Below, one piece after another: positions 7,436 through 64,000 of a DNA stretch of 64,000 bases. The stretch covers positions 1,504,001 to 1,568,000 of the forward strand of contig CBDESU010000001.1 in the NCBI GenBank assembly GCA_965242695.1. The letters run 5' to 3'. This stretch comes from Cenarchaeum sp. (GTDB lineage Archaea; Thermoproteota; Nitrososphaeria; Nitrososphaerales; Nitrosopumilaceae). The translations under genes were made by a program, and so were the position numbers. The notes beneath the pieces were generated by a model. It was not told the DNA's origin. It saw nothing but the letters and a program-made list of their open reading frames with translations, and made no database searches. Positions within the stretch are counted from its first letter, which is position 1. Each line of letters starts with the position of its first letter.

Positions 7436-8539
7436 GTGAAGCCGCTCGACATTTCGCTCATACCGGGCGACGGGATAGGCCCCGAGCTTGCGGCATCGGC
7501 GCGCGCCGTCCTCGATGCGGCCGGCGACAGGTTCGGCGTGCGGATGGACGTGCGCGAGTGCGAGGCCGGCGATGCCGCGCTCGAGAGGACGGGCAGGGCG
7601 CTGCCGGACGAGACGTTCGAGGCCGTGCGCGGGTCGGACGCGTGCCTAAAGGCGCCGGTCGGCGAGAGCGCGGCCGACGTCATCGTGGCGCTGCGCCGCA
7701 GGCTCGGCCTGTACGCCAACGTCAGGCCGGCAAAGTCGTACCCCGGCATGCCGGCCCTGTCGGACCGAATGGACATGGTCGTCGTCCGCGAGAATACCGA
7801 GGACCTGTACACGGGCGCCGAGTTCTATGTGGACGGGCCGCTGCCGCTGGCCGGCGCGTACGGCGGGGATGCCGGGGCGGGGAAGGGGGGCGGCCGCACG
7901 GCCGTGGCCCTGCGGATCGTCTCGGATGCGGCCTCGGAGCGCATAGCCAGGTACGCCTTCGAGTCGGCCGTCGAGAGGGGCGGGGCGAAAAAGGTCACGT
8001 GCGTGCACAAGTCGAACGTGATGCGCGTGACGGACGGGGTGTTTGCCGGCGCGTGCGCGCGGGTGGCCGAAGAGTACCCCGGCGTCGAGTTCGAGCAGAT
8101 GTACGTCGACGCGTGCGCGATGAACCTCATACGTCGGCCCGAGTCGTTCGACGTCGTCGTGACGACAAACCTGTTCGGCGACATACTCTCCGACGAGTCC
8201 TCGCAGGCGGCAGGCGGCCTCGGCATGGCTCCGGCCGCCAACGTAGGCGACTCGTTCGCGCTGTTCGAGCCCGTGCACGGGGCGGCGTTCGACATTGCGG
8301 GCAGGGGGATCGCCAACCCGTCGTCGTTCATCCTGTCGGCGTCGATGATGCTCGGGTGGCTTGCGCGGAGGAGGGGCGGGGCGGAGGGCGAGGGGTGCGC
8401 CGCGGCCGGCAGGGCCGTCGAGGATGCCGTGCGCGGGGCGGTGGCGGCAGGAGCCAGCACCGCAGACGTGGGAGGTGCGATGACGACGGTGCAGTTTACG
8501 GAAGAGGTCGTGTCCAGGATGGGCAGGCGGAAGGCGTGA
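7436..8539 (+). CDS. leuB: 3-isopropylmalate/isocitrate dehydrogenase family
   Basis: PGDGIGPE, VRENTED.Y, NLFGDILSD and EPVHG.A.DIAG motifs. In the ilv/leu cluster. Confidence 0.88.
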   Translation: MKPLDISLIPGDGIGPELAASARAVLDAAGDRFGVRMDVRECEAGDAALERTGRALPDETFEAVRGSDACLKAPVGESAADVIVALRRRLGLYANVRPAKSYPGMPALSDRMDMVVVRENTEDLYTGAEFYVDGPLPLAGAYGGDAGAGKGGGRTAVALRIVSDAASERIARYAFESAVERGGAKKVTCVHKSNVMRVTDGVFAGACARVAEEYPGVEFEQMYVDACAMNLIRRPESFDVVVTTNLFGDILSDESSQAAGGLGMAPAANVGDSFALFEPVHGAAFDIAGRGIANPSSFILSASMMLGWLARRRGGAEGEGCAAAGRAVEDAVRGAVAAGASTADVGGAMTTVQFTEEVVSRMGRRKA

Positions 8540-8677
8540 GCCGCGCCGGGTCGGGCGGCGGCCCGAGGCGGCGGCAGGGCGGCCGGTACGGCAGGGGTGG
8601 CGCCCCCGGCGCCGCGGCCGGACGCGAGGTTTGACGAAAACTGTATGCTTAATGAGGGGCGATGGGCGTCCGGAATC

Positions 8678-9493
8678 GTGAAGGCGGGGCAAGGTCGGAT
8701 GCAGGGGGGACGAGGGGTGGCTCGGACGGGCCGCGGCGGGGCCGCCGTTGCTGCCGCCGCGCCAGCGGCGGCTGACGGCAGGGCCGAGTTCAGGGAGATG
8801 TTCGTGTCGCTTGTCGATCCGGCCGGCCTGCTCGACATGGAGAGGTGCGGCAGGACGGCCGCCCTGATGAGGGAGGCGGCGTCAAGGTCGGGGTACGAGT
8901 CGGGGGCCAGGATGGCGTCCATACTGGAGGACATCTTTGCCGACACGGCCGACATCGCGAACAGGCCCGTCGAGGACGGGGCACTGCGTCATACCCATGT
9001 CGCGTTTCGCAACATAATCTGGGTGCTGCGCAGCACCGCCGAGTTGTACAGAAATAGCAGGTGCGAAGAGCCAGTCTACAAGGAAAAAGACGGCACGCCG
9101 TTCCCGTTTTGGCGGCCTGTGAGCAACGATCCCGAGCCGGTCGCCAAGCTGGAAGAGGTGAGGAAGGCCGTTTCAGACCTCAGGTCAAAGGCGGACGCGC
9201 GCCGCGAAGAGTTGAGGGCGGCCGACCCGCCAGGCTCAGGCCTGGACATGTACACCGCGTCGTACAAGGGCAGCATCTGCAGGGATCTCGTGAGGGAAGA
9301 CATCGAAAAGGTACGCGCAGAGTACAGGGCAGAAGACGTCGATCCGATATTCCCGCCAAGGCCAAAGCCGCTCGACGAGCACTTCAAGAAGTGCGACGGC
9401 CCGATCTGGTCGTCGGCAGAGATAATCGCATGGGCTAGGGGCAACGGGCCCCCGGACGGGTACGAGGTGGTCAAGGTCGGGGACGACGAGTGA
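8678..9493 (+). CDS. Unknown ~270-aa protein, family A copy 1 (PIN-associated, putative antitoxin)
   Basis: Paralog of 10131..10910 and 62903..63643 (FVSLVDPAGLLDME.C, DIA.RPVEDG, FPP, PDGYE). TATA-like cttaatg at 8648-8654 precedes GTG 8678. Confidence 0.75.
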   Translation: MKAGQGRMQGGRGVARTGRGGAAVAAAAPAAADGRAEFREMFVSLVDPAGLLDMERCGRTAALMREAASRSGYESGARMASILEDIFADTADIANRPVEDGALRHTHVAFRNIIWVLRSTAELYRNSRCEEPVYKEKDGTPFPFWRPVSNDPEPVAKLEEVRKAVSDLRSKADARREELRAADPPGSGLDMYTASYKGSICRDLVREDIEKVRAEYRAEDVDPIFPPRPKPLDEHFKKCDGPIWSSAEIIAWARGNGPPDGYEVVKVGDDE

Positions 9494-9980
9494 CATCAAA
9501 CCCAAGGTGCTGGAGGCCTACTTCGACAGCACGTGATCGTAGCGCTTGCAGCCATGACGGACACCGCGCATTGCACGCGCGCACCCAGCGGCGGTCCACT
9601 CCCTACGCCACGCGCAACCGCACATCGACGACATCGAGTGCATGGCCGTCTGCATTGCGATCCGCTCGAGGTCGTGCGGTTCGATCGGCGGCGAGGGGGG
9701 GGGGCAACATGACCATGACGTCGAGCATGCGCAGGAACGGGTCGCGGTGGCATCCCTGCTCGCACGCAATCATGTCGAGAGGTACAGCACGATAGGTGCC
9801 ATGGCTGGTACGAGCGATGACGATATGGTGGGCGATGACGGCGGCGCAGACTACGGAAGAGTTGGAGACCAAGATGGCCAAGCGGTCGGCGCGAACCGCA
9901 CGGCCACAGCGGCGGCAGCACGGCAGACAGCGAGCGCCCCTGCCGACATCCTGCATGTCCTAAGCAACACGTGGCTGTAG
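9477..9980 (+). pseudogene. Degraded PIN-domain gene
   Basis: Same position and +1 frame as the intact PIN gene at 10894. Reads VLEAYFDST* then shifts frame to VIVALA. The codon equivalent to the TTG start is TCG. Confidence 0.6.
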
Positions 9981-10098
9981 CCGCGATCGGACTGTGCGGC
10001 GATCGGCGCCTCCGCACGCCCGGCCGGCCAAGACTACCCTTTTTGTCCCCGCGCTGGCGCCGCGGCCAGATGCGGAGCCTGCGCGGCGAAGGCGGTAT

Positions 10099-10106
10099 CT
10101 TTAATA
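10099..10106 (+). promoter_or_regulatory. Archaeal TATA box for family A copy 2
   Basis: ctttaata in GC-rich context, 25 nt upstream of GTG 10131. Equivalent boxes precede copies 1 and 3. Confidence 0.6.
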
Positions 10107-10130
10107 GGTGGTAAGTGGGCCTCCGGTATC

Positions 10131-10910
10131 GTGCAGGCTGTGCAGGGACAAAAGCAGAAGGCTCGCGAGGCGGCGCGGACAGGCCGCGGCAGGGCCGCCG
10201 CAGAGGCGGACGGCAGGGCCGAGTTCAGAGAGATGTTCGTGTCGCTCGTCGATCCGGCAGGTGTACTCGACATGGAGAGGTGCGGCAGGACGGCCGCCCT
10301 GATGAGGGAGGCGGCGTCAAGGTCGGGGTACGAGGCGGGGGCCAGGATGGCATCCATGCTGGAGGACATCTTTGCCGACACGGCCGACATTGCGAACAGG
10401 CCCGTCGAGGACGGGGCGCTGGGCCATACCCATGTCGCGTTTCGCAACATAATCGAGATACTGCACGACACGGCCGAGCTGTACAGGGAGGAATGGGGGA
10501 TCAAGCAGGAAGGCCCGCTCCCGTTCTGGAGGAATGTGAACAGAGATCCCGAGCCGGTCGCCAAGCTGGAGGAGGTGAGAAAGACCGTTGCAGACCTCAG
10601 GTCAAAGGCGGACGCGTACCGCGAAGAGCTGAGGGCCGCCGACCCTCCAGGCTCCGGCTTGGACAAATACGACGCGTCGTACAGGGGCAACATCTGTAGG
10701 GACCTCGTAAGGGAGGACATGGAAAAAATACGTGCGAATTGCAGGGCAAGGGGCGTCGATCCCATATTCCCGCCCAGGCCAAAGCCGCTCGACGAGCACT
10801 TCAAGAAGTGCGATGGTCCAATCTGGTCGTCGGCAGAGATAGTCGCATGGGCAAGGGGCAACGGCCCCCCTGACGGGTACGAGGTGGTCAAGGTTGAGGA
10901 CGACGAGTGA
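10131..10910 (+). CDS. Unknown 259-aa protein, family A copy 2
   Basis: Long near-identical stretches with copy 1 at DNA and protein level. Overlaps the downstream PIN gene. Confidence 0.8.
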   Translation: MQAVQGQKQKAREAARTGRGRAAAEADGRAEFREMFVSLVDPAGVLDMERCGRTAALMREAASRSGYEAGARMASMLEDIFADTADIANRPVEDGALGHTHVAFRNIIEILHDTAELYREEWGIKQEGPLPFWRNVNRDPEPVAKLEEVRKTVADLRSKADAYREELRAADPPGSGLDKYDASYRGNICRDLVREDMEKIRANCRARGVDPIFPPRPKPLDEHFKKCDGPIWSSAEIVAWARGNGPPDGYEVVKVEDDE

Positions 10911-11493
10911 CGTCAATGTCTTTAGAGTCTATCTTGACACCAGCGTTATTGTGGCGCTGGCAGTGGCGTTTGACCTGCACCACAACGATGCTGTCAGGAC
11001 GTGCGTTGCCCTGCTGCGAGGTGGGCATCAACTGATCACCTCGCGGCTGGCCATCATAGAGGCGATCGGCTCGGTTCGCAAGAAGATCACGATGTCGCAC
11101 AGGTACCAGTCGGGGAGCGAGGAGGAGCGGGCAGGTGTGGATGCGGATGCGGCCAAGGCCGTCAAGGACCTGCTCGGACTCATAGAATACATGACAAGGC
11201 ATGGCTTTCTAAAGATCACAGAGCCAAAACGCTGGTCGCCCGACTTTTCACTCTTGTACGACAGGGTGATCGAGCAGGTCGGCCGCGCCGTGCACACCGG
11301 CAAGGGCAAGAACTACAGGTACCGAGGCGTCGGGTCGTACGACTGGCTGAACTTCCTGCTCGCCCGGGACTCTGGCGCGTCCGTCATCTGCACGACTGAT
11401 GCGGCGTTCGCCGACATCGAGGGCAACGACAGTGAGTTTGGGCACATCAGGATACAGCTGGCCGGCGCCCCGTTGATCACCGGCGCCCTGTGA
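10894..11493 (+). CDS. PIN-domain (VapC-like) ribonuclease
   Basis: VYLDTSVIVA, H..A, ITSRLAIIEA, YDWLN and ICTTD.AF acidic PIN motifs. Confidence 0.85.
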   Translation: MRTTSDVNVFRVYLDTSVIVALAVAFDLHHNDAVRTCVALLRGGHQLITSRLAIIEAIGSVRKKITMSHRYQSGSEEERAGVDADAAKAVKDLLGLIEYMTRHGFLKITEPKRWSPDFSLLYDRVIEQVGRAVHTGKGKNYRYRGVGSYDWLNFLLARDSGASVICTTDAAFADIEGNDSEFGHIRIQLAGAPLITGAL

Positions 11494-11612
11494 GTAGCGC
11501 GCGCATGCCGCAATGCTGGCACCGCCAGGGAACAGGGGATTCCTGCAACCGTAGGCAGTATGCACGGTGCGCCAGAGCCCGCCGCGGCGCGCGTGCGCGC
11601 ACATCCGCCGCC

Positions 11613-13073
11613 CTACGCCGCGCCCAGCCGCGCATCGACGGCATCGAGCACGCGGGCCGTCCGCCGCACGATCCGCTCCAGGTCGTACGGCACGACGGCC
11701 AGCGGCGGGACCAGCATGATCATGTCGCCGAGCGTGCGCAGGAACACGTCGCGGCGGCGCCCCTCCTCGAACACCACCTTGTTGAGCGACGGGAGGCGGC
11801 GCGAGGCGGCGGGCGCATCGCCCCCGGCCCCGCTCCCGCCCCTGCCCCCCCTCCTGCCGGCCGGCCGCCCGTACGCCGCACCCGCGGCGGCCACGCAGAT
11901 CCCCGCTAGCATCCCCCTGTGGCGGACCGCCCCCGCCGAGGATAGCGGCCGGATGTGCCTGTCGAGCAGCCTGCCGAGCTCGGCCGACGAGTCGCGCACC
12001 CTGGCGATCAGCCCCTCGCTCTCGTACAGGGCCAGGTTGGCGTTGGCCGCGGCCGCGGCCAGCGGGTTTCCCGTGTACGTGTGGCCGTGGAACAGGTGGC
12101 GCCCCTCGTCGTGCCGCCCGAGGAACGACTCGTACACCCTACGCGTGGCCAGCGTGGCGGCCATCGGAAGGCAGCCGCCGGTGAGCATCTTGCCGTACGA
12201 GACGATGTCGGGCCTGCTGCCCTGCGCCCTGTGCTCGGCCATCGAGCCGAGGCGGCCGAGCCCCGTGGCCACCTCGTCAAGGACGAGCGCCACGCCGAAC
12301 CGGCGGCACAGCTCGGACGCCCCGCGCTCGAACCCGTCGGGGTACACGGCGACGCCGCCGGCGACCTGCGCGCCGCTCTCCATTACGAGCGCCGCAATGG
12401 ACGGGTCGGACTCGAAGGCGGCCCCCATCTTCTCGAGGCACCTGCGCGAGTCCTCCGCCGGCGTCATTCCCGCCGGCGGGTCGGCAAGGTCGGGCGCCGG
12501 CAGGCGCCTCACGCCGCGCAGCAGGAGCGGCTCGTACCCCCGCGTGAACGACGGCACGCCGCACAGCGACATCACGCCGAGCGTGTCGCCGTGGTACCCG
12601 CCCTCGAGTGCGGCGATCCTCGCGCGCCCCTCCTCGCCGCGGTTGGCCGCGTGCATGACGGCCATCTTCATGGCCGCCTCCATTGCGGTCGACCCGTCGT
12701 CCGAAAAGAACGCTCGGTGCATGCCCGGCGCGACATCCTCGACGAGCCTCAAGGCGAGCTCCTCGGCCGGCCGGTTCGTGAGGTTGAACAGCGTCGAGTG
12801 CGGCATGCGCCTGGCCTGCGCTACCATCGCATCGACGATCGGGCGCGGCGTCCTGCCCCACACGTTCGTCCACATGGATCCCACCGCGTCGAGCAGGTGG
12901 CGCCCGCCGGAGAGGAACAGGGTGGAGCCGACCATGCGGACGGCCTCGTCAAAGCCGTCCGGCCACTCGGACATCTGCGTGTTCGGGTGCCACACGCGGC
13001 TTTCGGACGGATCCTCGGCCGCATCGCAGGCTCCGCGCCCCGCGCCGCCCCGCCTCGCCGCCGCCGATCCCAT
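11613..13073 (-). CDS. bioA: Adenosylmethionine-8-amino-7-oxononanoate aminotransferase
   Basis: VWHPNTQM, DDGSTAME.A.K, GYHGDT, DEVATG.GR, GKMLTGG and HGHTYTGNP motifs. Confidence 0.93.
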   Translation of the reverse strand: MGSAAARRGGAGRGACDAAEDPSESRVWHPNTQMSEWPDGFDEAVRMVGSTLFLSGGRHLLDAVGSMWTNVWGRTPRPIVDAMVAQARRMPHSTLFNLTNRPAEELALRLVEDVAPGMHRAFFSDDGSTAMEAAMKMAVMHAANRGEEGRARIAALEGGYHGDTLGVMSLCGVPSFTRGYEPLLLRGVRRLPAPDLADPPAGMTPAEDSRRCLEKMGAAFESDPSIAALVMESGAQVAGGVAVYPDGFERGASELCRRFGVALVLDEVATGLGRLGSMAEHRAQGSRPDIVSYGKMLTGGCLPMAATLATRRVYESFLGRHDEGRHLFHGHTYTGNPLAAAAANANLALYESEGLIARVRDSSAELGRLLDRHIRPLSSAGAVRHRGMLAGICVAAAGAAYGRPAGRRGGRGGSGAGGDAPAASRRLPSLNKVVFEEGRRRDVFLRTLGDMIMLVPPLAVVPYDLERIVRRTARVLDAVDARLGAA

Positions 13074-13252
13074 GCGCCGGGCCGCGCCGCGCCGCTATAA
13101 AAGGCGCCCCCCTGCTGGCGCCTGCGCAATTGCGGCCGCTCCCGGCGCAGCCGCGGGGGCTTTCGATCCTGCACCCCTCCAGGCATGCGGGAGAACCGCG
13201 CCGATCGCATCCGCGCCCGGCGTGCGCCCGGCGCATGCCGGCGCGCCGCGCA

Positions 13253-13260
13253 GTTTATAC
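13253..13260 (+). promoter_or_regulatory. TATA box for the transposase-derived gene, divergent from the bioA TATA box at ~13096-13102
   Basis: gtttatac 29 nt upstream of ATG 13289. Confidence 0.55.
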
Positions 13261-13288
13261 CGCCCGCAGTCCGCCGCAAGGCGGGGCA

Positions 13289-14095
13289 ATGCCAGGCAGT
13301 CCGAGCAAGGGATCCCGCGTGGGGAGCGGCGCGCAGGGCGGCTGGTTCGATCGCATCCCCCCGCCGTCGCCGGACGCGCACGGCAGGAGGGTCGTAATGC
13401 TCGTCGTAGACTACAAGGTGGTAAGGATCGCCGAGCCGGGCGGCCGTGGGGCCGACGGCAGGGCGCGCGCCGCGAAGTACGGCGTGCTGGCCATTGCCCG
13501 CTCGGACGGCCTGATAATATTCCTGAGCAAGGCGCAGCGGGGGCTTGCCACCGGCGCAGCATCCCTCCGCTCCATCCTTCCGAAATTGGGCATCCTGACA
13601 GATTCGCTCGAAAATCCCGACACCCCTCCCGACGAGCGCGTCGTGGTGTGCGTCGACCGCGCCCTGCAGGAGATCAAAAAGGTCTGGCCCGGCGCCGATG
13701 TTCTCGTTCCGCACGGCGGGCGGCGGGCGGCCGGCGCCGCCCGGGCCGCAGACATTACAAAGGGCATGCAGTCCGCCGAGAGCAGGTCAGGCATAGAGAT
13801 GGCCTTCCGCGGGATCGACGGGTACAGGCTTGTCGGCGGGGTCTTTGCCGGGACGGCCGACGACTTTGACGAGACGCTCCAGGTCGTGGCCGGGATGGTC
13901 AACATGCGGGTGATAGCGCGCGCCAAGGAGGCGCGCAAGAAGGGATCCGGCAAGAAGGGATCCGGCAAGAAGGGATCCGGCAAGAAGGGATCCGGCAAGA
14001 AGGGATCCGGCAAGAAGGGATCCGGCCGGAAAGGCAGGAAAGGTGCAGGTATGGCGGCGGCGCGGGGCAGGGATGCGGCAGGGCTCCAAGGCTGA
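13289..14095 (+). CDS. Stand-alone IS5/DDE_Tnp_4-type transposase catalytic domain with (KKGSG)6 basic tail
   Basis: Aligns by eye with the transposase at 59967..61220: ILPKLGILTDSLENPDTP..RVVVCVDRA..WPGADV.VP vs TLPFLGDITRSMEDPATP..RMTVNVDKA..WPGADVRIP, and RSGIEMAFRGIDGYRLVGGVFAGT vs RSIAENEFRRIKIYPLVGGIFRGT. Confidence 0.8.
   Translation: MPGSPSKGSRVGSGAQGGWFDRIPPPSPDAHGRRVVMLVVDYKVVRIAEPGGRGADGRARAAKYGVLAIARSDGLIIFLSKAQRGLATGAASLRSILPKLGILTDSLENPDTPPDERVVVCVDRALQEIKKVWPGADVLVPHGGRRAAGAARAADITKGMQSAESRSGIEMAFRGIDGYRLVGGVFAGTADDFDETLQVVAGMVNMRVIARAKEARKKGSGKKGSGKKGSGKKGSGKKGSGKKGSGRKGRKGAGMAAARGRDAAGLQG
13937..14026 (+). repeat. 15-bp coding tandem repeat aagaagggatccggc x6 (KKGSG)
   Basis: Six perfect copies. 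Confidence 0.97.
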
Positions 14096-59718: not shown

Positions 59719-61300
59719 GGTAGTTATGCGTATTCGAATCGTACTGTTATAATACGTACCAATTGACGAGATTTGCGCGGAACATCCCGCGATGTTTTGC
59801 GAAATTGAAGAAACTCTGATCGAATTACGGACTTCGATCGCAGAAATGCGTCAAATCGGGGCGAAATTTCCGGGCAGAGGTCGAAATCGGGGCCGTTTTC
59901 GGCATGCCGTCCGGCGGCATGCGCCCTGCGAAACTATTTTGCATGCGGCGCAACGGCCGCGGCGCGCTATCCGAACGTCTTGTACGGCTTTCTGCCGACC
60001 CAGCCGATCTCGGGCCGCTCTCCCTTCGGGCCCTTTGCGTGCGACCTCCCGGGGTCGATGCACCCCATCAGCCTCTGGAGGTTGACGACCCCCGTGATGA
60101 ACACGACCATGTTTCCCAGGCCGACGATGGTCCCGCGGAATATCCCGCCGACCAGGGGGTAGATCTTTATCCTGCGGAACTCGTTCTCTGCGATCGACCT
60201 TGGCGCGTCGATGCTGTAGTTGTACGCGCAGTCCTCGGCGGACAGCTCCTTCTGCCCCTTGGCCTTCTTCCGGGGGATCCTGACGTCGGCGCCGGGCCAC
60301 TCCTTGTCGGCCGTCAGCATGGCCTTGTCGACGTTGACCGTCATGCGCAGCTCCTCCGGCGTGGCGGGGTCCTCCATGCTCCTTGTGATGTCGCCCAGGA
60401 AGGGGAGGGTCTCGCGGAGCGCGACTATGTTGTGCTTGCGGCCCTCCATGATCTCGCCCATGGCCAGGAGCAGGCCGGCCTGGGCGCACAGGAACACCGC
60501 CTTTGCGGTCGTCGTCTGGGCCTTGCCCGAGAACGCCGCCTCGTTGGACTCCCTGTCGCCCGGCGCCTCGATCTCAAACTCGGTGACGTCGCAGTTGATC
60601 ACGCGGCCGATCGCCTCGATGACCTCGTCGCCGGGAGTCTCGGCGATCTCGTCGGCAACGGCCACGATCGTCGGCATCGTCCGGGGGTTCGTCAGGAGCG
60701 CCAGGGTCAGGCTCAGGTACCGCGATATGGTCGTCTGGTCTATGCCGAACTTGCTCTCGAGCATCTCCTGCGGGTTGCCGCTGCGGGCCGCATGCAGGAT
60801 GAGGAAGGGCATGTGGGCCGGAAGGATCCTGCACCGGTTGCCCTGCCAGCCGGCCCTGTGCTCGTCGACGCCGCCCCGGGCCAGCGGCATGGCCAGGTTC
60901 CCCCTCAGGCCGTCCTTGACGCATGCGACCATGTAAAAGTAGGGGCGCGGATCCACGCCCGTCTCGGCGCGCAGCCGGGCCGGGTCGCGTATCACGTTGT
61001 CTAGCATGACGGTGCATGCGGCGCGATCGTACTCGTCCGGATCGGCGTGCCCCTTCATGGCATCGGCCTTGCGCGCATCCGCCTCCGCCTCGAACAGCTT
61101 CTGCTCGGGCAGGGCATACTCGTCGAGCATGGCGCGCTCGACGGTGAGCCACTTGAATGCGGGCATCTTTTCGTACTTGCATCCCATGATGCTTCGGATG
61201 ACGTACCTTTCTTCCGCCATGCCGCCTGTCGCGGCCGTCCTTGTACCCCACAGTGGTCAATAATTTTTTACCTGCGGTCAGCTCTTTACGCATGACTGCC
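59719..61300 (-). mobile_element. Complete IS5-family (ISL2/PIF-Harbinger-like) insertion sequence, 1582 bp
   Basis: 14-bp imperfect TIRs ggtagttatgcgta (59719-59732) and tacgcatgactgcc (61287-61300), 12/14 match. Flanked by 3-bp direct repeat CTG at 59716-59718 and 61301-61303. Confidence 0.88.
59967..61220 (-). CDS. DDE_Tnp_4-type transposase
   Basis: HTH (LESKFGIDQTTISRYL) plus INCDVTE..IEAP, FSGK, VDKA and YN....PRSIAEN.F.RIK motifs. Confidence 0.92.
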   Translation of the reverse strand: MAEERYVIRSIMGCKYEKMPAFKWLTVERAMLDEYALPEQKLFEAEADARKADAMKGHADPDEYDRAACTVMLDNVIRDPARLRAETGVDPRPYFYMVACVKDGLRGNLAMPLARGGVDEHRAGWQGNRCRILPAHMPFLILHAARSGNPQEMLESKFGIDQTTISRYLSLTLALLTNPRTMPTIVAVADEIAETPGDEVIEAIGRVINCDVTEFEIEAPGDRESNEAAFSGKAQTTTAKAVFLCAQAGLLLAMGEIMEGRKHNIVALRETLPFLGDITRSMEDPATPEELRMTVNVDKAMLTADKEWPGADVRIPRKKAKGQKELSAEDCAYNYSIDAPRSIAENEFRRIKIYPLVGGIFRGTIVGLGNMVVFITGVVNLQRLMGCIDPGRSHAKGPKGERPEIGWVGRKPYKTFG

Positions 61301-62254: not shown

Positions 62255-62902
62255 GGTCGGGGCCGCGCCAAGCACGGCGTATTTTATCGCTTTGGGGCGC
62301 GGCCAGGCGGCGCGCCCGGCCCCGCGCGCCCGCCCTGCCCGCGGCCAGCAGGCGGCATCTCGCAGGCGAGCTAGGCTGCGCTCCGGCGCCATGCGCCCGT
62401 ACAGGCCGCACATACTGGCGGCGGGGCCGGAAGGGCGCGGCGCCGCATGCCGGCCGGCCCGGTGCCGCCCGCGGCGGCGCTGAAGGAGGCGCCAGTGACG
62501 GCACGGCCGGCGCGGCAGGCGTGCAGCGTGACGGCGGCATGGTCGAGCCCCGCGCGCCACCGCCCGCGGCCGAGCCCCCGCGCGCAGGGCCCGCGGCCCG
62601 TGGCGAACTGCAGTCCGGCCGGCCCGCGGCCAGCGCCGGCCGGATGCCGGCCATGCCCGGGCGCCCTGCGCGAGGATGGGCGTCGCGGCGGGCCGCCGAT
62701 CCCTTTGGCATCGTGTGGCCCGCATCACCGGCAGGCGCCAGGTGCCAAACCGTCCGGTTATGACACAAAGCATTCCCCGGCGGGCACGAGTGGGTTCGGA
62801 TTGGCAAGGCGCCAGGTAGTACGGCAGTGAGGCATGTCGGTCCAATTATTACCCGATCGGCGCGCAAGATCGCTTATATCGAACGCAGATGCCTCCCGCG
62901 CC

Positions 62903-63643
62903 GTGCAGGCTGCAAGGCAGGAACAGCAAACAGGCCACGCAGTGCTGGGGAGTAGTAGCAGGCTAGCCGGGGCGGCAACCGCTACCAACGGCGTCGCCGG
63001 GTTCAAGGACATGTTCATCTCGCTCGTCGATCCGGCCGGCCTGCTCGACATGGAGGCGTGCCGCAGGATGGCCGGCAGAATGGAAGAGGCGGCGTCGAGG
63101 ACGGGGCACAGGGCCGGCGCCAGGATGGCGGCCATCCTGTCCGACATGTTTGCCGCCGCGGACGACATTGCGGACAGGCCCGTCGAGGACGGGTCGCTGG
63201 GCCACACGTGGGTATCCCACGGGTTCATGATGGGCGCGCTGTACGATACTGCAGAGGCGTACAGGGACGGCGGGGACGCCGAGCCGGTCGGCGAGCTGGA
63301 GGATGCAAGGGACATGATCGAGCGCCAGAGGGCCAGGGCCAACAGGCGCCGCGAGCAGCTGAGGGCTGCCGGCGGCCCGCCCGGCGCTAGCCTTCCGGGG
63401 ATCGAAAGGATGCACGTGGGCAGGGTGTGCAGGGACGTGGCAAGGGAAGGGCAGGAAAAGGTGCGAGCGCAACAGAGGGAATGGGGCAATGATTCCGTGT
63501 TCCCGCCGAAGGCAAGGGCGCCCGGCGAGGAGTGTAAGGAATGCAAGGATGCCGGCATATCGGCGGCCGCAATTCTGGAGATGATGAGGGGCAACATCCC
63601 CGACGGGTACGAGCTGGTGCGGGCTGGCAGGGGAGACAGGTAG
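62903..63643 (+). CDS. Unknown protein, family A copy 3 (divergent)
   Basis: FKDMFISLVDPAGLLDMEAC, DIADRPVEDG, FPPK and PDGYE motifs. TATA-like cttatat at 62873-62879. Confidence 0.8.
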   Translation: MQAARQEQQTGHAVLGSSSRLAGAATATNGVAGFKDMFISLVDPAGLLDMEACRRMAGRMEEAASRTGHRAGARMAAILSDMFAAADDIADRPVEDGSLGHTWVSHGFMMGALYDTAEAYRDGGDAEPVGELEDARDMIERQRARANRRREQLRAAGGPPGASLPGIERMHVGRVCRDVAREGQEKVRAQQREWGNDSVFPPKARAPGEECKECKDAGISAAAILEMMRGNIPDGYELVRAGRGDR

Positions 63644-64000
63644 GAAGAGGGCGGCGGAAGCCGCTGGCGCCGAGGCCGGAGACTCCGGCCTGCTCGCCGG
63701 GCTTGAAACGGGGGTCAACGGCAGCTTCGAGACCGTATACACCTGCCTAGACGGCAGCATGCTCGTGGTGCTGCCAAATCCAGGCGGCATGCACCGCGAC
63801 GACGCGCTCGGGGCGCTCCGCGCGATAGTGAGGAGCGGGTACAAGATGATCACCTCGCTGCTGGCCGTCATGGAGGCAGTCGCCGCCGTCCGCAGAAGAA
63901 TCGCAGGTTCGCACAAGTGCAGATCGGGAAGCGCCGAGGAGCTGGCCGGCGTCGAGGCGCACGTGCAGAGCATGGCCAACAGGGTGTCCGAACATTCGTA
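63624..64000 (+). CDS. PIN-domain protein paralog, 3'-truncated by window edge (absent from the ORF track)
   Basis: Open frame reads VYTCLDGSMLVVL...MHRDDA...SGYKMITSLLAVMEAVAAVRRRIAGSHKCRSGSAEELAGVEA, colinear with the PIN gene at 10894. Start codon unclear (CTG 63624). Confidence 0.75.
   Translation, partial: MAGETGRKRAAEAAGAEAGDSGLLAGLETGVNGSFETVYTCLDGSMLVVLPNPGGMHRDDALGALRAIVRSGYKMITSLLAVMEAVAAVRRRIAGSHKCRSGSAEELAGVEAHVQSMANRVSEHS

Follow-up and report, generated by a model that had tools for sequence, protein, structure and literature searches.

A PIN nuclease cassette of an ammonia-oxidising archaeon: a predicted toxin-antitoxin pair whose antitoxin probably joins two proteins encoded separately in relatives

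A stretch of 64,000 nucleotides (nt) from Cenarchaeum sp. (contig CBDESU010000001.1, positions 1,504,001 to 1,568,000; hereafter the window) carries three copies of a gene of a family here termed A, each followed by an overlapping gene, or the relic of one, for a PIN-domain nuclease. On balance, it is probable from the sequences that A and PIN form a type II toxin-antitoxin (TA) pair, in which the PIN protein would be an RNase toxin and A, its likely antitoxin, a lineage-specific fusion without a known DNA-binding domain of two proteins, X and Y, which in related archaea are encoded separately before the same kind of PIN. Such a pair would be an undescribed version of a toxin-antitoxin system. 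A preliminary description of this DNA was right about the linkage to PIN, the lack of a known family and the antitoxin-like tail of A, but not about the size, and probably not about the novelty, of its helical domain. The elements concerned, all on the + strand, are as follows (aa, amino acids).

8649..8653, +: TATA-like box of copy 1 (-29 to -25), from the sequence and positional enrichment across copies
8678..9493, +: family A copy 1, 271 aa, GTG start, intact, an orphan (PIN deleted)
9477..9572, +: 5' PIN remnant, start codon lost, stop at 9534-9536, frameshift (nhmmer E 0.01; position and frame the same as for the copy 2 PIN)
10100..10106, +: TATA-like box of copy 2, from the sequence and enrichment across copies
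10131..10910, +: family A copy 2, 259 aa, GTG start, intact, predicted antitoxin
10209..10637, +: X-like five-helix domain of copy 2 (residues 27-169), from profile comparison and AlphaFold models
10752..10865, +: low-confidence C-terminal tail of copy 2 (residues 208-245), predicted PIN-binding segment, homologous to tails of other PIN-preceding genes
10881..10886, +: Shine-Dalgarno-like GAGGTG, 7 nt before the PIN TTG start and within the last codons of A, from the sequence, with a putative function
10894..11493, +: PIN-domain nuclease (Pfam PIN), 199 aa, D15, E56, D150 and D169 present, predicted toxin
62874..62879, +: TATA-like box of copy 3, from the sequence and enrichment across copies
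62903..63643, +: family A copy 3, 246 aa, GTG start, intact
63624..64000, +: PIN frame behind copy 3, continuing about 300 nt past the window, stop lost, from sequence comparison

The three GTG-initiated paralogs of the preliminary description are all present, copies 1 and 2 being 79% identical and copy 3 being 43-45% identical to the others, and the PIN gene at 10894 is intact as described, overlapping A copy 2 by 17 nt in the +1 frame, starting with TTG and scoring 27 bits against a Pfam PIN cut-off of 23.6. The ‘degraded PIN’ at 9477 is indeed PIN-derived but amounts to a 5' remnant of only about 95 nt, with TCG where copy 2 reads TTG; its nhmmer match is weak alone, since 4 of 400 random windows reach an equal level. 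Similarly, the PIN frame at 63624 does run beyond the window edge, as stated, but, while full length in the genome, it has no ATG, GTG or TTG before the first catalytic Asp, only the CTG at 63624, and has lost its stop, and is therefore probably also decaying. The TATA boxes reported before the A starts are borne out by AT-rich boxes at -31 to -24 in the three window copies and by enrichment across the genome, where at least 6 of 7 positions are A/T at the box position in 13 of 21 A copies, compared with 43 of 978 background sites (the census comprising copies with a called start, with one start mis-called by the rule and one copy for which none was called).

The association of A with PIN is a property of the whole genome. 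The host genome (G000; 3.89 Mb in 2 contigs, 67-68% G+C) goes beyond the three copies previously noted: its A genes number 22 and, with one partial duplicate, fall into 11 clusters. Behind these 22 genes are 11 intact PINs, 2 full-length but broken PINs, 4 remnants (one of them weak) and, in 5 cases, no detected PIN, while the 16 A matches in the genome of a sister species (G004) are followed by 8 intact PINs and 8 remnants (one weak). Of the 22 A genes of G000, 17 thus have a PIN or its remnant immediately after them, as do all 16 of G004 (33 of 38 in total), and the linkage proposed from the window holds for the two genomes. Furthermore, the decay is one-sided. The PIN is intact behind 19 of the 38 A loci and broken or missing at the other 19, a ratio of A genes to intact PIN genes of about 2:1; in at least 13 cases an A gene that looks intact is accompanied by a broken PIN or by none, and a single one of the 19 intact PINs follows a broken A (locus L015 of G004). 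PIN has therefore been lost far more often than A, as one would expect if the one is a toxin and the other its antidote; since the loci cannot be counted as independent, no p-value is attached to this asymmetry. In the G004 arrays A-A-A-PIN and A-A-A-A-PIN, the PINs between the copies are internally deleted and one whole PIN remains at the end.

Several loci are of note in their own right. At L015, A is split by an IS110-like transposase (named from motifs by eye), the tail half remaining as a 109-aa open reading frame (ORF) with its own ATG; the locus (L015:680-3422) combines 90-nt tandem repeats with the transposase and represents a natural tail-only variant with an intact PIN behind it. At G000:C2:894304-894723 a partial duplicate of the A C-terminal region lies between an intact A and its PIN, the start of which overlaps the duplicate, and behind a broken A at C2:1467528 (G000:C2:1466700-1467500, L011) there is a short ORF with a RelB/HigA-like antitoxin ending (by eye), not a PIN. 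Antitoxin genes are multiplied before one PIN at a second place, G000:C1:1864408-1866393 (L113, L120, L123), where a PIN of the same broad subfamily is preceded by three tandem genes of about 117 aa with the same tail and no X domain.

For copies 1 and 2 of the window, the history of the duplication is legible from two further segments identified by sequence comparison.

9601..9779, no strand assigned: decayed second copy of the 3' end of the bioA-like gene that lies downstream, 75% identical to 11611-11786
9832..9899, no strand assigned: decayed second copy of the 3' end of the leuB-like gene that lies upstream, 78% identical to 8477-8544

Because the PIN remnant is followed by decayed 3' ends of both flanking genes, 8678-11493 is one local tandem duplication from which the first PIN has been deleted. 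One contig of a run labelled as sponge metagenome (X10) connects 9494 directly with 10928, so that a single cassette stands in the order leuB-A-PIN-bioA, and the same single cassette occupies the leuB/bioA site of G004; in G001-G003 a different gene comes after leuB, and the 1.5 kb examined contains neither A nor PIN. Copies 1 and 2 sit between these leuB-like and bioA-like housekeeping genes, so named from our reading of their sequences, and not in a defence island. A 13.7-kb contig of the same run spans the window locus with few differences, and therefore a close relative lives in a sponge. Archaeal AmoA is encoded in G000 (E 2e-118), which on this sequence evidence is an ammonia-oxidising archaeon. 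Two ORFs near the A-PIN copies, at window positions 13130-14095 (+ strand, with KKGSG repeats) and 59967-61220 (- strand), look transposase-related or like decayed mobile genes. A mobile element carrying the cassette was considered and rejected, no shared ends or flanks being found among the 11 clusters (blastn at E 1e-4 with 22 flanks of ca. 550-590 nt).

Judged from the sequences, the family has spread by local tandem duplication and dispersal, after which extra PINs were deleted and extra A genes kept under purifying selection; orphan A genes are likely kept as spare or cross-protecting antitoxins. The ratio of nonsynonymous to synonymous substitution (dN/dS) is 0.26-0.54 among 19 A pairs with dS <0.5, orphan copies included (0.31 for window copies 1 and 2), and 0.32-0.56 for 5 close PIN pairs; more distant pairs give higher values, which saturation makes unreliable. 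It is very unlikely that the cassette is instead a largely spent selfish element, with neutral duplications, mostly inactive PINs and orphan A genes that have not yet decayed. Such an element would account for the 19 of 38 loci with a broken or missing PIN, for a window duplication that is polymorphic among strains and for the A genes that are themselves broken, but it does not predict one-sided decay of two genes of similar length, orphan A genes that keep promoter boxes and a dN/dS near 0.3, or 19 PINs that retain their active-site residues.

The identification of A as the partner of PIN is further supported by its C-terminus. In the AlphaFold model of copy 2 (predicted local distance difference test, pLDDT, 84.7; predicted template modelling score, pTM, 0.75), a confident helical core extends to residue 206 and is followed by a low-confidence tail (pLDDT 63-79) with two short helices (220-225 and 234-244). 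A profile of the PIN, in which the acidic catalytic columns are well kept among 70 sequences (D/E15 in 65, E56 in 69, D150 in 66 and D169 in 68), finds more distant PINs at 10 loci in 7 other genomes of the family. At 9 of these loci the directly upstream gene encodes 86-178 aa with a shared tail, L-x-G-L-L...S-x-E-x-V-R-x-x-R, and such a tail-bearing gene directly before PIN is called Y in these relatives; at the tenth, the PIN lies behind a transposase-like ORF. One tail-bearing gene has a weakly AbrB-like N-terminus (Pfam E 0.015, NCBIfam E 0.014). The tail of A, its C-terminal 40-50 residues, aligns with the Y tails (HHalign 81%, score 34.9, compared with 13.0 +/- 2.8 and a maximum of 26.0 for 60 block shuffles), and no HHalign match was obtained with the tails of PemK-linked or toxin-less Y genes. 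In addition, a hidden Markov model (HMM) of the tails of 12 PIN-preceding genes from other genomes placed six PIN-associated ORFs at the top of the 59,312 ORFs of G000 (E 9e-6 to 6e-4), namely three divergent A genes and three short genes preceding another PIN. The suggestion that A ends in an antitoxin-like tail is upheld by these comparisons.

The N-terminal part of A appears to have a different source. At 5 of the 10 distant PIN loci a further gene, X (about 135 aa), precedes Y. Among 400 other genomes of the class, 29 have X (in 10 of 81 genera), and a sample of 400 genomes from the phylum adds two, both of another family. The 30 X loci that were read comprise 9 X-Y-PIN, 4 X-Y-PemK (Pfam-confirmed in the 3 scanned) and 1 X-Y-HEPN-like arrangement (called by eye), 13 X-Y pairs with no toxin seen, and 3 that are cut off or unclear. 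X could be assigned to no family or fold by searches of family libraries and structures. Its model (pLDDT 94) contains five helices (residues 4-20, 24-40, 44-66, 71-93 and 97-120) in the same register as those of A (13-44, 48-65, 68-88, 97-121 and 143-169), and a Cys in helix 2 agrees (41 of 46 A, 25 of 38 X). A aligned with X scores 28.8 in HHalign (28%), compared with 12.9 +/- 2.4 (maximum 20.8) for 100 shuffles and 16.8 when reversed; the value for the divergent A clade is 62%. Reciprocally, when the search was made with an HMM built from A residues 27-169, 12 X proteins, mostly from PIN-linked loci, came first among 245 sequences and ahead of all 207 decoys (best E 2e-5). Taken together, sequence and models make homology of the A N-domain and X quite probable. 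The novel helical domain of about 200 residues described earlier is thus helical (the confident copy 2 model is a strandless bundle whose helices are 18-27 residues long) but consists of about 140 residues plus one packed helix, and is probably related to X. This additional helix (residues 189-206, a block of pLDDT 92-96) aligns with the pre-tail helix of Y, and the high confidence suggests that it packs on the bundle and, as a guess from the models, that X holds Y in the three-gene systems.

A was found in only 2 of 251 genomes of its family (G000 and one sister species) and 2 of 41 relatives, and because X is widespread and has several partners while A is narrow, fusion is preferred over fission. 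Of 151 protein matches to A, the best 120 are all at least 46% identical and unnamed, and of 28 matches in a search of 50% clusters one long outlier was inspected; its sequence is repetitive and the match looks fortuitous. There were no Pfam, NCBIfam, PADLOC, PHROGs, PDB-sequence or Atlas matches (for the three window copies Pfam and NCBIfam gave only DinB_2 at E 0.096, and PADLOC 2.0, 2023 library, matched 0 of 4 proteins at E up to 1), in agreement with the earlier view that the family is not assignable, which the structure searches also support.

The X loci (L063-L092, L094, L097, L098, L104) also show that X heads operons with a coiled-coil second gene of variable C-terminus, either a PIN-type tail, a W-D-N-x-x-D tail before PemK, or a winged-helix-like or hydrophobic end. 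The 13 toxin-less Y genes have 9 winged-helix-like ends (by eye, except for one weak GntR match), 2 hydrophobic and 2 other. Conserved residues of X are E51, E54, L104, R108 and T112. The HEPN-like case (L077:1903-2722) consists of X, a 157-aa gene and a 114-aa gene that is HEPN-like by eye, without Pfam or NCBIfam support, and at one PIN locus (L027:585-1070) the first gene is not X but encodes a 161-aa protein with a weak match to a DarG antitoxin model (E 4e-5, far below the cut-off).

An unlikely alternative to homology with X is that A is an antitoxin by virtue of its tail, the helical domain being lineage-specific and X-like only in the sense of a generic helical bundle. This would explain why the X HMM finds no significant match on A and why HHalign reaches only 28% for the main A clade, and helical bundles do reach middling Z scores by chance; it is harder to reconcile with shuffled and reversed controls far below the real A-X score, with the reciprocal HMM picking PIN-linked X proteins first, with an X gene two genes upstream of the same PIN subfamily, and with the agreement in helix register and helix-2 Cys.

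A number of observations count against the fused-antitoxin explanation as a whole. The first acidic PIN residue is Glu rather than Asp in 22 of 70 sequences, and many PINs may, to judge from sequence, be weak or dead. In the tail-HMM search the main A clade, which includes the window copies, ranks 167 or lower, so that these copies are linked to the Y tails only via the divergent clade, and the A tail profile has no match among solved VapB structures. At 13 of 30 X loci there is a second gene and no toxin gene within about 1.5 kb, so X is not toxin-specific. The X profile run on A genome-wide is not significant (best E 15; ranks 3, 4, 5, 7, 17, 21 and 26 of 59,312), a search for X in G000-G004 gave no match, and five-helix bundles are a common shape. 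The PIN distances correlate no better with those of the A tail (rho 0.48) than with those of the A N-domain (rho 0.60), and the PIN tree leaves the order of events undecided, fusion versus fission being argued from distribution alone.

If A is indeed the antitoxin, a leaderless message would give A and then, by coupled translation, PIN; residues 208-245 or thereabouts would wrap around and block the PIN, as VapB tails do, and loss of A, or loss or release of its tail, would free the RNase and slow growth. Since the X domain has no DNA-binding fold and is acidic (mean net charge -5), autorepression is likely absent. The domain may instead serve, within the antitoxin, to stabilise or control it by holding helix 189-206, and so govern its lifetime or release; this is the preferred reading of the domain, which we regard as possible rather than probable. 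A has two conserved cysteines (C51 in 41 of 46 and C189 in 43 of 46), and that these make the control redox-sensitive is speculation. A bolder and rather doubtful proposal is that X is a toxin-independent control domain of archaeal TA operons, gripping its partner before PIN, PemK or HEPN-like genes until a sensor or thiol switch frees the toxin, and that it has been fused and amplified in this sponge-associated lineage to some 20 sensor-antitoxins, half of them toxin-less, cross-protecting spares.

A quite unlikely possibility is a sensor-effector defence pair, in which the helical domain senses a viral or stress cue and activates the PIN, the paralogs forming a repertoire of sensors; this is compatible with A also being an antitoxin. 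The absence of PADLOC or PHROGs matches, the position of the window copies between leuB-like and bioA-like genes and the repeated deletion of PINs speak against it, as does the helical domain being the more conserved part of A (mean distance 0.48, versus 0.53-0.60 elsewhere) and not the fast-changing one. In its favour are the X-domain proteins before three unrelated toxin types, the many divergent paralogs that are kept, and the exposure of symbionts to many viruses in filter-feeding hosts described in PMC7848895.

The favoured explanation, a fused antitoxin, would add an antitoxin family without a DNA-binding domain, and would point to a broader family of three-gene operons, X-Y-toxin, that is so far undescribed and in which the toxin can be exchanged. 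It would also provide a natural series (separate genes, fused gene, orphan copies and a tail-only insertion mutant) for studying third-component control of a toxin and surplus antitoxins. The PIN nuclease is in itself an ordinary one, and no new biochemical activity is indicated; the X-headed operon family is the most promising lead. What is known of TA systems in ammonia-oxidising archaea comes almost wholly from counts of domains, and A escapes these entirely. The genome papers on sponge archaea, in the parts available, disagree on TA enrichment, and searches of their main text found no mention of PIN or VapC; the supplements may list PIN counts (PMC9289680, PMC7848895). Literature searches found no description of family A, and a term search of a 2026 preprint on archaeal duplications found no mention of toxins or Nitrosopumilaceae.

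Among known systems, the CheA P1 (histidine phosphotransfer, HPt) domain is a top natural-protein match of both the A and X models, without significance, the scores being within the range of unrelated helical bundles. The conserved phospho-accepting His of such a domain is absent (no column has His in more than 7 of 38 X or 21 of 46 A sequences). In toxin-antitoxin-chaperone (TAC) systems the third component is SecB-like. X resembles it as a third component that may control antitoxin stability, a chaperone role being a guess, but X is a five-helix bundle and SecB a beta-rich tetramer. Compared with the tripartite type II loci pasABC, omega-epsilon-zeta, paaR-paaA-parE and SpoIIS (PMC4803016), relatives likewise have a third gene, X, before the predicted antitoxin and toxin; X, however, belongs to no known regulator family, occurs with PIN, PemK, a HEPN-like gene or no toxin, and in the present lineage is likely fused to the antitoxin tail; the window has two genes, and 14 of the 30 X loci read in relatives have three. 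Neither the tripartite systems in the available part of PMC4803016 nor the PIN partners catalogued in that of PMC2701414 include any counterpart of A or X. A close parallel is VapBC, in which a PIN toxin (PF01850) is paired with RHH, AbrB, PHD, COG2442, COG2886, COG2880 or COG1753 antitoxins (PMC2701414) and C-terminal extensions of VapB inhibit VapC (PMC5389673). A-PIN shares the upstream partner overlapping the PIN gene, the TATA-like box, the retained acidic active site and a flexible C-terminal tail as in VapB (PMC5389673). It differs in that A is 240-270 aa, all-helical and acidic, without a match to RHH, AbrB, PHD or helix-turn-helix domains, in a PIN of about 200 aa with insertions, and in partner genes that outnumber intact PINs by about 2:1. 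Identity with canonical VapB is rejected, the N-terminal DNA-binding domain being absent by Pfam and NCBIfam search, strandless helical model and net charge; A nonetheless likely functions as a VapB does.

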